The notes under the pieces are model-generated. The model was given only the letters and a program-made list of their open reading frames with translations, had not been told where the DNA came from and did not search any database. The position numbers and the translations under genes were made by a program. From Candidatus Multivoradales bacterium (lineage in GTDB: Bacteria; Acidobacteriota; Thermoanaerobaculia; Multivoradales; JAHEKO01), in the NCBI GenBank assembly GCA_965248055.1, contig CBDFIJ010000004.1, forward strand, positions 1,472,001 to 1,536,000: DNA of 64,000 bases. Direction: 5' to 3'. Of this stretch, positions 9,369-16,131 are shown piece after piece. Each line of letters begins with the position of its first letter. The first letter of the stretch is position 1.

Positions 9369-10530
9369 AGGTACCACCCGATTTCCTGCGAGATCTTTGC
9401 AATGAATTGCGTCTCTCTCTGCATGAGCAGACGACTTCGATACATCCCCGAAGGTGGCGCCTTGGTCGAGATCACCTGCCGCACCTTCCAGGGACGCTAT
9501 CTGTTGAAGCCCTCCCCGGCTGTCAATAGCTGCATTGCAGGTGTGCTCGGGAGAGCCCAGAGGATTTATCCCGTCGAAATCCATGGCTTTGCTTTCCTCT
9601 CCAACCACTATCATCTCCTCATCACCGTCCCAGATGCCCACAGAATGGCCCAGTTCGTCGGCTACTTCAACTCCAACCTCGCCCGAGAACTCGGGCGAAT
9701 TCGAAGCTGGACCGACAAAATCTTCTCCCGCAGATATCAGGCCATTGTTGTCAGTGAAGAGGAAGCTGCCCAGGAGGGGCGCATGAAGTATCTTCTAAGT
9801 CAGAGCGTCAAAGAAGGACTGGTTAGCCATCCCACTAGATGGCTTGGCCTCCACTGCGCTAAACAGCTTCTCAAACGACAAGACTCGCTATCTGGTCGCT
9901 GGCGAAACAGGACCCAAGAAACAGTGCACTACCGAACAACAAGGGAAAGCAAGATCTTTCTGCGGACTGAGCATATCCAACTATCGCCGCCTCCTTGCTG
10001 GCAAGGACAGAGCCACCGCTGGATTGCACAGCGCTGCAAAGAGCTAATAGAACTGATCCAGAATGAGAACAAAGGGATCGAACCTATGAAACTCCCCGAT
10101 CCCGATCCCACTCAGCGGCCGGTCAAGATCAAGCGCTCACCCGCACCGATATTTCACTGCGCTTCTAGAAAGGCAAGACGCTTGCTCTATGAAGCCTACT
10201 GTTGGTTTGTGACTGCCTACCGCGATGCCTGTGAGCAGCTCAAAGCCGGGAATCTCCAAGCTGCCTTCCCGGCAGGCTCATTCCCGCCCCCCAGGCCGTT
10301 TGTAGCGTCCTGAGACACACTCAAGAGCGAGCTTCGAGAAGAAGGTGAGGGAGAGGCTTGCCCTTATGACGGCTCAGACCGTGCCAGCGACGAGACTTTC
10401 AAAACCTCGGGTCAAAGATCTGCGTTGTTTCACTGCAGTCAGGAGCAGAGCCTCGATTGTTTCAGCATTCCTTCCCACACGGAGGCCGTCTTCAAATTCC
10501 CCTGAAAATCACCTGGCACGCTCTCTGCAG
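9369..10530 (+). mobile_element. RAYT-type Y1/HUH transposase element, copy 1
   Basis: Direct repeat of 14714-15918. Left end AGGTACCACCCGATTT, right end AAATCACCTGGCACGCTCTCTG. Confidence 0.85.
9423..10313 (+). CDS. REP-associated tyrosine transposase (RAYT, Y1_Tnp), copy 1
   Basis: MSRRLR..VEITCRT, FAFLSNHYHLL (HUH motif), IFSRRYQA, MKYLLSQSVKEGLV. 296 aa from the ATG shared with copy 2. Confidence 0.88.
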   Translation: MSRRLRYIPEGGALVEITCRTFQGRYLLKPSPAVNSCIAGVLGRAQRIYPVEIHGFAFLSNHYHLLITVPDAHRMAQFVGYFNSNLARELGRIRSWTDKIFSRRYQAIVVSEEEAAQEGRMKYLLSQSVKEGLVSHPTRWLGLHCAKQLLKRQDSLSGRWRNRTQETVHYRTTRESKIFLRTEHIQLSPPPCWQGQSHRWIAQRCKELIELIQNENKGIEPMKLPDPDPTQRPVKIKRSPAPIFHCASRKARRLLYEAYCWFVTAYRDACEQLKAGNLQAAFPAGSFPPPRPFVAS

Positions 10531-10532
10531 GA

Positions 10533-11129
10533 GAGCCGCAATCTTGGAATCGGTACACATATGTAAACAATCGGCCAATTCACTATGTTGATCCAGATGG
10601 GCAGTTTGACTTTCTGTCCTTTTTCAGGATCAGTGAAGAAGCAAAGAGCGAAATCCAAAAAGCGGAAGAAGCCTTTGAGGAAGCTCTGGAGCTTGATGCT
10701 AAGTTGCGACTTGGGGGTATTGGGGGAGCTGTTCAGCTCGGTCCAGGCAAAGTAGAAGGGGCGTTAGAACTAAGACTTGGGGTAGATTTGACTACGGGAG
10801 ACTCGGAACTCGAGGGAAGGGGTGTTCTAGCAATACAGGGTGGAACGATCCAAGGACGTGCCTCCGCATCAGCGCAACTTCCCATTATTGAGGGTGGCGA
10901 ACTGTTCCCAAGTGGCGTTACAGGTGACATAAATGGCGCCCTGAGGACCGACGCTACAAATTTGGCTTCAGATTCAGTCTCAGTGACTGCTAGAGTTGGG
11001 ATAGCGCGACTGTTTATCGGAGTGAATTTTGGCGCGTATGCGCGGGGTGTCTCTCACACTGCATCCGCGGTCCGAGAATTGATTCGAGGTAATCACGACC
11101 AATTTGATGTACCTATCTTTTTTCCATAA
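10533..11129 (+). pseudogene. Orphan Rhs C-terminal tip (core end plus putative toxin domain), 5'-truncated
   Basis: EPQSWNRYTYVNNRPIHYVDPDG is in frame with ORF 10704-11129. There is no start codon, and an upstream stop lies inside the RAYT end. Confidence 0.85.
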
Positions 11130-11145
11130 CTAGAAGGGGGGGGCG

Positions 11146-11460
11146 TTGTCCGACGATGCTCGCGGAACCAGGGTTCTCCTTTTTTCGATTGCCCTACTAG
11201 GCGTAGTCGGTGGTCTTGCGTGGATAGGGATGTACGTTCTGAACGGACGAAGTGCCATACCTTTTCCCTTCCTGTTCTTGCTCTTCTTGGGCGTCTTTGG
11301 ATCGTGGGCTGGCAGCATCGTTTTGTGGACACTACTCCCGCGGCGCGGCTGGACGCATTGGCTCATTTTTCCAGTACTGGTGGTGTTTGGCGGTTTCTTT
11401 GGCTGGGTCTACATTGTGTTGCGCGTATCGAAGGCCTGGCGTAGACAAGGGTTCCGCTAG
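11146..11460 (+). CDS. Small 3-TM membrane protein, putative Rhs immunity protein
   Basis: Immediately downstream of the Rhs tip, with a G-rich RBS. Hydrophobic. Confidence 0.55.
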   Translation: MSDDARGTRVLLFSIALLGVVGGLAWIGMYVLNGRSAIPFPFLFLLFLGVFGSWAGSIVLWTLLPRRGWTHWLIFPVLVVFGGFFGWVYIVLRVSKAWRRQGFR

Positions 11461-11474
11461 ATAGACGTGCCACA

Positions 11475-13995: not shown

Positions 13996-14129
13996 TCGGA
14001 TCGTGGTCCTAGGGGTCTGTTGGTTTGGACTAGCCTGCGCTCATCTTCAGCCCACTCAGGAGTTGCAGCGGTGGGATGGGAAAACTGGCTACCGATTTAG
14101 CAACCTGGATCAAGGTGAGAACTCCGACT
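13982..14129 (+). pseudogene. N-terminal fragment of a lipoprotein (patatin-like phospholipase type), cut by IS3
   Basis: Lipobox GLA-C, then GYRFSNL..ENSD, then the IS end. Confidence 0.5.
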
Positions 14130-14708
14130 CGGAACCTGTCAACAACTTTGAGACAGTTGGCAGAATTAATTAGTGAATCGGGACAACCTCCTTGGTGCGC
14201 TGATGTTTGGGTGGGTTGATCCAGACGGCCCTCGGTAATAGCTGAACGGTCGGTCTTCCACGGACAAATCGCTGTGGGTTGTTTCGCCAAGCTTGGTCAA
14301 GGGCCAGTTGACGGATCTTGAGCTTGTGGTCGGCCTTGCCGCAGTGGACATCTTCGGGTGTCAGCATGGCGATGCCGGCGTGCCGGTGCTGGGTGTTGTA
14401 CCAGATAAAGAACGACCTGCAAAAGGCGATAGCGTCCTCGATCGAGCCGAACCGATCGGGAAAGCTCGGGTGATACTTGAGGGTCTTGAATTGGGCTTCG
14501 GAGAAGGGATTATCGTTGGAGATGCGAGGCCGCGAGAACGACTGAGAGATACCAAGCCGTACGAGGAGTCGTCCGGTGTCCTTGGCGGTCATCGGCGAGC
14601 CCCGATCACTGTGTAGGGTTAGCTGATTCTTGGGAATGCCTTGCTTGGTTGAGGTCTCCTTGAGAAGCCTTTGGGCTAAGGCCTCGCGTTCGTGCTCGGC
14701 GAGCATCC
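14130..14708 (-). mobile_element. IS3-family integrase-core 3' stump
   Basis: LHSDRGSPM, SFSRPRISNDNPFSEAQFKTLKY, WYNTQHRHAGI. Terminal sequence cggaacctgtcaacaactttgagaca. Truncated by RAYT copy 2. Confidence 0.85.
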
Positions 14709-14713
14709 CTAAA

Positions 14714-15918
14714 AGGTACCACCCGATTTCCTGGGAGATCTTTGGGGTGAATTGCGTCTCTCTCTGCATGAGCAGACGACTTCGATACATCCCCGAAGGT
14801 GGTGCCACAGTCGAGATCACTTGCCGCACCTTCCAGGGACGCTATCTGTTGAAGCCCTCCCCGGCTGTCAATAGCTGCATTGCAGGTGTACTCGGCCGAG
14901 CCCAGAGGCTTTATCCAGTCGAAATCCATGGCTTTGCTTTCCTCTCCAACCACTATCATCTCCTCATCACCGTCCCAGATGCCCACAGAATGGCCCAGTT
15001 CGTCGGCTACTTCAACTCCAACCTTGCCCGAGAACTCGGGCGAATTCGAAGCTGGACCGACAAGATCTTCTCCCGTAGATATCAGGCCATTGTTGTCAGT
15101 GAAGAGGAAGCTGCCCAGGAGGGGCGCATGAAGTATCTTCTAAGTCAGAGCGTCAAAGAAGGACTGGTTAGCCATCCCACTAGATGGCTTGGCCTCCACT
15201 GCGCTAAACAGCTTCTCAAACGACAAGACTCGCTATCTGGTCGCTGGCGAAACAGGACCCAAGAAACAGTGCACTACCGAACAACAAGGGAAAGCAAGAT
15301 CTTTCTGCGGACTGAGCATATCCAACTATCGCCGCCTCCTTGCTGGCAAGGACAGAGCCACCGCTGGATTGCACAGCGCTGCAAAGAGCTAATAGAACTG
15401 ATCCAGAATGAGAACAAAGGGATCGAACCTATGAAACTCCCCGATCCCGATCCCACTCAGCGGCCGGTCAAGATCAAGCGCTCACCCGCACCGATATTTC
15501 ACTGCGCTTCTAGAAAGGCAAGACGCTTGCTCTATGAAGCCTACTGTTGGTTTGTGACTGCCTACCGCGATGCCTGTGAGCAGCTCAAAGCCGGGAATCT
15601 CCAAGCTGCCTTCCCGGCAGGCTCATTCCCGCCCCCCAGGCCGTTTGTAGCGTCCTGAGACACACTCAAGAGCGAGCTTCGAGAAGAATGTGGGGAGAGG
15701 CTTGCCCCTATGATGGCTCTACGATGGCTCAGGCCGAGCCAGCGACGAGACTTTCAAACCTCGGTTCAATAATCTACGTCGTTTCACTGCAGTCAGGAGC
15801 AGAGCCTCGATTGTTTCAGCATTTCTTCCCACACGGAGGCCGTCTTCAAATTCCCCTGAAAATCACCTGGCACGCTCTCTGGCACGCTCTCGAGAATCAC
15901 CTGGTACCCTCTCTGTAG
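14714..15918 (+). mobile_element. RAYT-type element, copy 2, with triplicated right end
   Basis: Direct repeat of 9369-10530. TGGYAC at 15868, 15880 and 15902. Confidence 0.85.
14768..15658 (+). CDS. REP-associated tyrosine transposase (RAYT), copy 2
   Basis: Differs from copy 1 at two visible residues (ALVE/ATVE, QRIY/QRLY). Confidence 0.88.
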   Translation: MSRRLRYIPEGGATVEITCRTFQGRYLLKPSPAVNSCIAGVLGRAQRLYPVEIHGFAFLSNHYHLLITVPDAHRMAQFVGYFNSNLARELGRIRSWTDKIFSRRYQAIVVSEEEAAQEGRMKYLLSQSVKEGLVSHPTRWLGLHCAKQLLKRQDSLSGRWRNRTQETVHYRTTRESKIFLRTEHIQLSPPPCWQGQSHRWIAQRCKELIELIQNENKGIEPMKLPDPDPTQRPVKIKRSPAPIFHCASRKARRLLYEAYCWFVTAYRDACEQLKAGNLQAAFPAGSFPPPRPFVAS

Positions 15919-16131
15919 ACCCAAGAGAGTGCGAATAGAAGCTCGTCCTGAGGTTAGATCCGAATCTAAAGAACGCATGACCGATGGAAAGAAAACCCTT
16001 GACTGGACCGCCCGACTCATAGAACCCGCTTTTCTGCGGCAGTCCGGGTCAACTCCAATTCTGCACCCTTGGCCTTGGGCCACAGCACCCTAAAAGGCAA
16101 AGGCCGGCTTGGCACCTAGTCCAGTCTGCAC

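Follow-up and report, generated by a model that had tools for sequence, protein, structure and literature searches.

What has broken the genes that lie between malate dehydrogenase and an integron integrase in a Multivoradales bacterium, and left the pieces against the ends of a mobile element? The question arises in a stretch of 64,000 nt of Candidatus Multivoradales bacterium (assembly GCA_965248055.1), hereafter the window, which spans positions 1472001-1536000 of contig C4 (3.35 Mb) in a genome of 3.4 Mb (G000). The interval of interest (9369-16118) is bounded by malate dehydrogenase (mdh; 8034-9017, minus strand) and the integrase gene (20702-21805, plus strand) and holds two direct copies of a 1.17-kb element encoding a single-tyrosine (Y1) HUH nuclease, with pieces of unrelated genes between and beside them. 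A preliminary description had read the interval as an integron-like array of captured fragments, enriched in conflict genes and built by a transposase associated with repetitive extragenic palindromes (REPs), a RAYT, that repeatedly joined its ends to new DNA. We favor, with a probability of about 0.52, a different reading: the interval would be a nest of an insertion sequence (IS)-like TIRtron, a Y1 element flanked by terminal inverted repeats (TIRs), with end-anchored deletions or aberrant strand transfers. The pattern resembles the scars of an imprecise transposon more than it does a system built for collecting genes, and the modules are probably remnants of earlier residents and insertions, not the product of a dedicated capture apparatus.

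The two copies lie at 9363-10527 and 14708/9-15881 on the plus strand and are 96.3% identical over 1176 alignment columns. Both nucleases match the Pfam family Y1_Tnp (PF01797; 25.8 and 24.9 bits, cut-off 23), and the earlier observation that two direct copies of one element bracket unrelated modules is borne out, more firmly than the preliminary description could tell. Copy 1 begins with a left end at ~9363-9392 (..AGGTACCACCCGATTTCCTG..), followed by the nuclease gene (9423-10313, 296 aa) and a right end at 10495-10527 that reads ..CCCCTGAAAATCACCTGGCAC plus an 8-nt tail. In copy 2, taken from 14709, the gene for a nuclease of equal length occupies 14768-15658. The left end GGTACCACCCGATTTCC and the reverse complement of the right end GTGCCAGGTGATTTTC form imperfect inverted repeats of ~25 nt. 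Both ends are kept across paralogues, the same inverted-repeat layout being present in nine of them, with the TIR core GTKCCASSYGAWT or GGTGCCAS/GGTACCAC. DNA folds of both ends on both strands gave no hairpins (z from -1.06 to +0.70). The TIR-core pattern was found at 78 sites of the chromosome (11 in the reversed-sequence control), and these cluster at 603-605, 684-686, 1136-1146, 1293-1301, 1381-1401 and 1481-1491 kb.

The motif that recurs through the interval is the right end of this element, as the preliminary description had proposed. Searching for GAAAATCNCCTGGCAC with at most two mismatches yielded five matches in the window, all on the plus strand (10504, 11687, 12466, 15858 and 15892), whereas 0.18 matches are expected from shuffled windows and five were reached in 0 of 100 shuffles. 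At one mismatch or fewer, the whole genome contains four forward and no reverse matches, and all four are inside the interval. Isolated copies of the final 28 nt of the element lie at 11678-11705 and 12457-12484 and form part of solo right-end unit 1 (11678-11714, plus strand) and solo right-end unit 2 (12457-12488, plus strand, ending in the tail CCAGTCC). A degenerate right-end unit (15883-15910, plus strand) adjoins the right-end tail of copy 2, and a weaker right-end-like unit lies at ~16095-16121 on the same strand (..CTTGGCACCTAGTCC). Right-end units in general have a sharp outer border (GGNAC plus ~8 nt) and a variable inner length. The sequence TGGCACCNAGTCC occurs three times in the genome, with its two plus-strand copies at 12476 and 16110. 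The proposal that module boundaries coincide with the motif thus stands in large part: the ends match truncations far above chance, and 16110 is a genuine site. At 11467, however, the inverted site amounts to a 7-nt core only, and it is at chance level because the bare core TGGYAC is common in the interval (15 occurrences versus 6.4 expected). Scans of a sequence collection with the 16-nt motif returned at least 119 and at least 117 stretches; a nuclease homologue was present in 0 of the 236 loci listed, and we therefore regard these as chance matches.

At some right ends the core and a few adjoining bases are duplicated in tandem. Such duplications include a 9-nt one in solo unit 1 (TGGCACCCT x2, 11695-11714), a 12-nt duplication that spans 15866-15889 and takes in the start of the degenerate unit (TGGCACGCTCTC x2), and a similar one (GGCACCCACC x2) at C4 ~1300480, in the right end of the paralogue a1301. 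These could be footprints or else very short copies anchored at an end.

The 296-aa protein is a single-tyrosine nuclease of the Y1 HUH superfamily by its HUH motif, profile score and fold. All 26 aligned homologues carry the residues H69 and H71 (NHYH) and Y130 unchanged, and the Y motif, YLLSQ, contains one conserved tyrosine; no helicase domain was found in the protein. A Foldseek search with an AF2 model (pLDDT 84.5) ranked TnpAREP of E. coli first (4er8_A, E 2.6e-5, TMt 0.63), with further matches to TnpA of ISDra2, IS200 and IS608 (2xqc, 2f4f, 2vhg) and top hits ranging from E 2.6e-5 to 1e-3. A sequence search of solved structures gave a chance match alone (E 0.78). We identified 2216 homologues at E<=0.001 by protein search and 17 matches in the present genome by tblastn (9 near full-length and 8 partial); the window pair excepted, these paralogues are mostly 60-65% identical at the amino acid level. 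Among the present genome and 40 relatives, 33 of 41 genomes have matches (1-24 per genome), a tally that takes in the unpublished genome G002 (8 matches), which is used for no other claim.

Break points in the interval were set by homology to other genome copies. Four broken genes, namely the Rhs tip, the IS5-like element, the CHASE2-TIR gene (TIR being here the protein domain) and the IS3-family element, stop 0-5 nt from an element end, which confirms the earlier statement that four genes are broken within a few bases of the motif. Homology to an Rhs protein of the sister species G001 starts at ~10533, at most 5 nt past the right-end tail of copy 1. Judged by its sequence, 10533-11460 is an orphan Rhs tip, consisting of a core end with DPxG, a variable domain and a small downstream open reading frame (ORF). 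The tip proper (~10533-11129, plus strand; ..SWNRYTYVNNRPIHYVDPDGQ..) retains 21 residues of the core (TIGR03696 positions 56-76 of 76, E 3.9e-4, below the cut-off because so little of the core is left) joined to a toxin domain that matches no known family, and its homologue in G001, 36% identical, sits on a 359-aa mini-Rhs. The small ORF (11146-11460, plus strand; 2-3 transmembrane segments) is a putative immunity gene by its position. The IS5-like fragment (11473-11676, plus strand) comprises the first ~200 nt of an 805-nt element; its terminus at 11473 is genuine, and it breaks off at 11676, 1 nt short of solo unit 1. The CHASE2-TIR copy begins at 12489, 4 nt past the 28-nt repeat, and lacks the first 203 of 581 aa. 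The IS3 fragment (14129-14708, plus strand), which is the first 580 nt of a 1598-nt element with a transposase remnant on the minus strand, breaks off at the first base of the copy 2 left end. Finally, an IS110-family fragment (15918-16033, plus strand; the last ~110 nt of a 1394-nt element) begins 7 nt past the degenerate unit. For the five truncations that we examined, no missing half was found on the opposite side of the element, and the breaks are therefore not simple insertions.

The association of break points with element ends extends to the whole genome. We located all truncated copies of seven IS families and obtained 24 break points without a continuation nearby. Five of these fall within 45 nt of a TIR core; in 2000 random placements the average was 0.06, and no trial exceeded 2. 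The window accounts for three of these five break points, and the remaining two (804541 and 1400271) are elsewhere and independent. At 1381-1401 kb of C4, 23 end units lie in one orientation downstream of an Rhs gene and among orphan Rhs tips. The main gene of this region (C4:1381000-1406000; L002, L003) encodes 1370 aa (1401837-1405949, minus strand), and at least four orphan Rhs fragments (1384-1395 kb) begin at one left-end-like 32-nt unit, exactly where homology to the main gene stops. The supposed enrichment in conflict genes is not supported, as the cases are few and not independent.

Two further observations concern the surroundings of element ends. The region at C4:1381000-1406000 also contains IS256-like copies as well as two full and three partial Y1 genes. 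At C4:804440-804640 there is a patchwork in which a 72-nt IS5-like remnant lies within a 15-nt direct repeat (CCTAAAGTTCTTCTA) and is directly followed by a left-end unit like that of the window element, with an IS110 copy and IS3 pieces adjoining.

IS110/IS1111 elements are known to target REP sequences site-specifically. Here, the 1394-nt IS110-family element was found inside the TIR core (GTGCCAG^..^CCGA) or beside it at every copy that we examined: the window fragment and C4:1379050-1380443, 1144161-1145554, 2104273-2105666, 804837-806096 and 683411-683543. The left junction always reads ..GTGCCAG, and the right one ..GAAGCC/GATTA (break at the slash) or, at two sites, GAAGCCGAATATT. From these junctions, the element looks like one that targets Y1-element ends site-specifically, and its preference for TIR cores explains why the window fragment borders an end unit.

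The origin of one module can be traced. The segment 12489-14708 is a 99% copy of C4:316759-320298, and it is made up of the CHASE2-TIR module (12489-14128, plus strand; 99% copy of C4:316759-319718), which carries the 5'-truncated CHASE2-TIR gene (12491-13624) and a 71-aa ORF, and of the IS3 fragment. The donor (C4:312967-321316; L001) consists of an inverted IS3 copy (312967-314563), 5155 nt of interior and a second IS3 copy (319719-321316), the two copies being 98% identical, and on sequence grounds its layout is that of a composite transposon that is still intact. The interior holds a 446-aa ORF, the intact gene for the 581-aa CHASE2-TIR protein (L001:6150-7895), the 71-aa ORF and an IS5b element, which inserted later, has a CTAG(G) target duplication and is absent from the window copy. 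The window thus retains the right 2960 nt of the donor interior, without IS5b, and 580 nt of the right IS3. Because the module derives from an IS3 composite, IS3 could have delivered the segment, in which case the Y1 element would be needed only for the exact trimming at the right-end tail and the left end. This is the sole module of traceable origin and RAYT-mediated capture is not needed for it.

The remaining cargo consists of broken genes or single small genes without relatives, and nothing suggests functional cassettes. One such gene is a lipoprotein-like ORF of 215 aa (11754-12401, minus strand), which has a signal peptide and a cysteine, no family matches and one weak match in the 40 relatives. 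PADLOC returned generic TIR matches for the CHASE2-TIR protein and no match for the nuclease, the Rhs tip, the immunity ORF or the lipoprotein. The preliminary description's integron-like cargo array is not supported by modules of this kind, which are IS pieces, an N-terminally truncated TIR gene and other broken or junk sequences.

We propose that the short end units (~20-40 nt) would act as hot spots of DNA breakage and rejoining. The nuclease would cut beside its own end unit, the predicted binding site, and cuts at both borders of a unit would give solo units of defined length. A covalently held end might then be joined to the wrong 3'-OH. Such events would produce deletions, tandem copies of ends and truncated neighbors side by side, always with one endpoint fixed at an element end. 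The residents and insertions trimmed in this manner would include the orphan Rhs tip with its putative immunity gene, the IS5-like element, the lipoprotein gene, the right part of the IS3 composite with CHASE2-TIR and the TIR-targeting IS110-like element. The cleavage and joining steps are proposed by analogy, because Y1 HUH enzymes are known to perform them; we infer that the Y1 enzyme itself makes the breaks, and likewise the order of events.

Several points weigh against this reading. Excised, alternative or circular forms were not seen in the contigs, which cannot show rare forms. The donor locus is today without a Y1 element and offers no direct link to trimming by the enzyme. The IS3 composite would have to have transposed to the window site, where there is no IS3 target duplication and no left IS3 copy survives. 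The two solo right ends have nearly equal inner lengths (~28-32 nt), which random deletion does not give, and some site-specific step is therefore involved; judging from the sequence, the unit is a defined one or there is a second site of cleavage. An orientation bias relative to replication is expected of Y1 transposition through single-stranded DNA, and no clear one emerges: the lagging strand carries 7 of 8 clusters in the present genome, but relatives show 9 lagging to 5 leading among loci with abs(z)>=2, local skew being a weak proxy. Finally, the literature that uses the term TIRYT, the name for enzymes of this kind, holds in its accessible part no activity data for any of them.

The principal alternative is true end-anchored capture, which we consider possible but doubtful. 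The Y1 enzyme would start at, or hold, the right end and transfer a strand of variable length, and repeated rounds would build an array, either by one-ended transposition like that of ISCR, IS91 and Helitron or by recombination between right ends that moves units of right end plus cargo. In its favor, a fixed right end is combined with a variable left extent in two repeat types. A repeat at 18750-19253 of the window (plus strand; right end ..CCTAATAAGTGGCACC) has eight genome copies with the common right end ..GTGGCACC and left extents of 33-188 nt ungapped, or up to 515 nt gapped, and the other right-end type behaves likewise. Many end-anchored fragments begin exactly at the preceding right-end tail (window 15882, G001, and C4 1395457, 1399018, 1400349 and 1401364). 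One right-end-like inner part is followed by at least six different right flanks, some of them typical of other right-end types, which could reflect exchange at the GGCAC core. The segment 12489-14708 adjoins the left end of copy 2 on its upstream side, as read-through past a leaky left end predicts, and the 23 same-orientation units at 1381-1401 kb have Rhs tips between them.

Relatives present similar arrangements, which, like the fixed right end with its variable left extent, count for the favored nest reading. We compared 24 loci with a full copy, from G001 and the more distant G011, G030, G032, G036 and G040, and found the downstream region repeated in the same orientation in 13 and in the opposite orientation in 4. 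In 5 of 25 loci, the Y1 gene is followed directly on its 3' side by a tandemly duplicated stretch of 143-234 nt that is present in 2-3 copies (90-100% match) and stops at the right end (L023:7926-8387 in G001, where a 234-nt stretch of the 3' region is duplicated; L029, L032, L033 and L036 in G011), and these represent two genera. The locus of G030 (L024; G030:C35:1-16000) has two full Y1 genes and five partial matches, of which four are 3'-terminal fragments in the same orientation and one is on the opposite strand. This G030 array contains at least five same-orientation right-end regions with PIN, DUF3368 (PIN-like) and ion-channel ORFs between them, and a TIR_2 gene lies just outside.

Against capture, the enzyme has one catalytic tyrosine and no helicase, unlike those of IS91, ISCR and Helitron. 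Left-end solos and left-end-anchored gene fragments are also present (4 of the 8 partial gene copies), which means that anchoring is not confined to the right end. No cleavage motif common to the left borders of right-end-anchored fragments was found (seven cases), nor was one found at the donor junction. The IS5 fragment abuts the inner, not the outer, side of solo unit 1, broken genes make up most of the cargo, the traceable module comes from an IS3 composite devoid of a Y1 element, and the contigs gave no circles or alternative joints. What survives of the claim that the enzyme repeatedly joins its ends to new DNA is that the ends mark joints and that same-orientation arrays recur here and in relatives; capture itself is weak, its only traceable module being a trimmed composite.

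A broader form of the idea, that TIRYT-kind nucleases are shufflers of gene fragments, which join a right-end unit to foreign DNA or recombine two right ends, appears to us unlikely. If true, it would produce same-orientation arrays of cargo plus end unit that concentrate polymorphic-toxin tips and immunity, TIR and toxin-antitoxin genes, and among Y1 enzymes it would correspond to ISCR/Helitron capture, with cassettes like those of integrons.

A nest of TIRtrons might also have been scarred passively, by IS-like insertion followed by host homologous or illegitimate recombination and slippage in which the Y1 enzyme took no part. The genome is indeed rich in IS copies that offer homology, internally deleted copies exist (e.g., 1140242-1140896), and the copies are old (96% identity for the pair, 60-65% at the amino acid level for the paralogues). 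We nevertheless think this improbable: the break points are at the first or last bases of end units and not within the 1.1 kb of homology, both solos share a common inner boundary, and right-end-terminated tandem repeats recur in independent paralogues and genera.

The modules could in principle be ordinary cassettes of the neighboring intI with IS insertions on top. The integrase, 4.6 kb to the right, is genuine (TIGR02249, 343.8 bits versus a cut-off of 265), a clear attC (19883-19945, strand not assigned) with bulged bases adjoins a methyltransferase cassette, and the interval from mdh to AMP-ligase measures 12.9 kb here versus 3.9 kb in G001, whose unrelated genes include neither an integrase nor a Y1 element. 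The site is thus variable, and the comparison is too distant to order events. A constrained fold scan of 8900-21000 nevertheless ranked the known attC first (-0.50 kcal/nt). Inside 9369-16118, this crude scan gave only weaker palindromes in the CHASE2-TIR module or the lipoprotein ORF and none at a module border, and the best of them (13607-13679, -0.35 kcal/nt) is also present at the donor locus, which is not an integron. Since module borders correspond to Y1-element ends and not to attC sites, the cassette explanation is very improbable. A weak attC-like palindrome is found at 19227-19282, its left half being the right end of the eight-copy repeat.

Short-read unitigs span the junctions 10527/8, 11472/3, 11676/8, 12456/7 and 12488/9 with 30-100 nt on each side; all four runs behind them sequenced a single sample, which is probably the source sample, so that the unitigs give no independent support. 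An assembly chimera of repeats, for which one could invoke the many repeats within 7 kb and the lack of contig cover over 14928-15668, is scarcely credible given these five bridged junctions, a 3.35-Mb contig that resolves more than 40 IS copies and the same architecture at other loci and in other genomes. As an aside, the small contigs C1-C3 of the present genome (14.8, 16.7 and 28.4 kb) have 39-43% G+C versus 57% for the chromosome and could represent plasmids, phage or foreign contigs that entered the bin.

The locus and its sister loci provide testable substrates: end units of 28-41 nt, sharp borders and natural junctions. The data hint that enzymes of the TIRYT kind remodel variable regions, Rhs toxin loci among them. 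Should the junctions be the work of the enzyme, this would be a new bacterial route of gene truncation, duplication and toxin-tip shuffling; if they are not, the locus is a warning that nested insertion sequences can mimic motif-delimited arrays. The elements are widespread, as the homologue counts above indicate, under a term that is rare in the literature.

How does the element compare with known systems? IS91, ISCR and Helitron resemble it in pattern only, with one fixed end, a variable other end, tandem ends and adjoining foreign gene fragments. Their enzymes have two tyrosines and/or a helicase, whereas the present nuclease has one conserved tyrosine and lacks a helicase domain, which excludes a rolling-circle enzyme of the Y2 or Rep-helicase type. 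The IS200/IS605 family (IS608, ISDra2) shares the Y1 HUH fold, the catalytic residues and the multi-copy state. However, the present protein is twice as long as TnpA (~150 aa), the element has TIRs in place of subterminal hairpins, and its copies are diverged and not near-identical; we therefore rejected membership in this family. No tnpB was seen within the 1.17-kb element, although no search was aimed at it.

REPtrons (RAYT/TnpAREP with REP/REPIN; PDB 4ER8) provide the best structural match of the core, and their gene is likewise flanked by an inverted short repeat that is also found away from the gene. The ends here are without palindromes or hairpins, 17 gene matches contrast with typically one per genome, and the repeats number tens and are clustered versus hundreds and dispersed. 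The nuclease also scores well below the cut-off of the NCBIfam RAYT model NF047646 (46.5 bits versus 80). The identification as a characterized REP-type RAYT had to be abandoned: a classical REP-associated RAYT is excluded by the lack of hairpins, the multi-copy state, TIRs instead of REPs, the low RAYT score and the YLLSQ motif.

The TIRtron is the closest relative. The available part of Di Nocera et al. (2013, PMC3733652) names TIRtrons and TIRYTs (TIR-associated tyrosine transposases) and reports TIR units as singles, dimers and clusters; that of Quentin et al. (2018, PMC6006769) places most TIRYTs in TnpAY1 subclass 2.1 and describes a multi-copy NHYH subclass 2.3. The window element is probably near subclasses 2.1/2.3, with YLLSQ in place of the Y---NP of Table 1 of the latter paper, as far as that source is available. 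It shares with TIRtrons a Y1/HUH gene flanked by TIRs and not by REP hairpins, TIR units that are single, dimeric or clustered, several diverged genes per genome, an NHYH motif and a long C-terminal extension. Instead of the GGGGWSAS motif published for TIRs, the core here is GGTGCCAS; since the accessible text reports GGGGWSAS in many TIRs and others unrelated to it (PMC3733652), the mismatch is no bar to membership. End units at truncated neighbors, variable-length end-anchored fragments and a link to Rhs orphan tips do not appear in the available portion of the TIRYT literature. By its sequence features, the element fits the TIRtron/TIRYT kind, which is already named and almost unstudied.

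Rhs orphan toxin/immunity arrays with associated IS are known, such as those with H-rpt/ISAs1 in E. coli. They resemble the loci described here in their 5'-truncated core pieces, variable tips, small downstream ORFs and interspersed transposase genes. RAYT and Rhs are each covered, separately, in the available part of 10.1101/2024.07.17.603846. The present arrays differ from known orphan arrays in that the interspersed element is a Y1 TIRtron and that four orphan fragments start exactly at an end unit.

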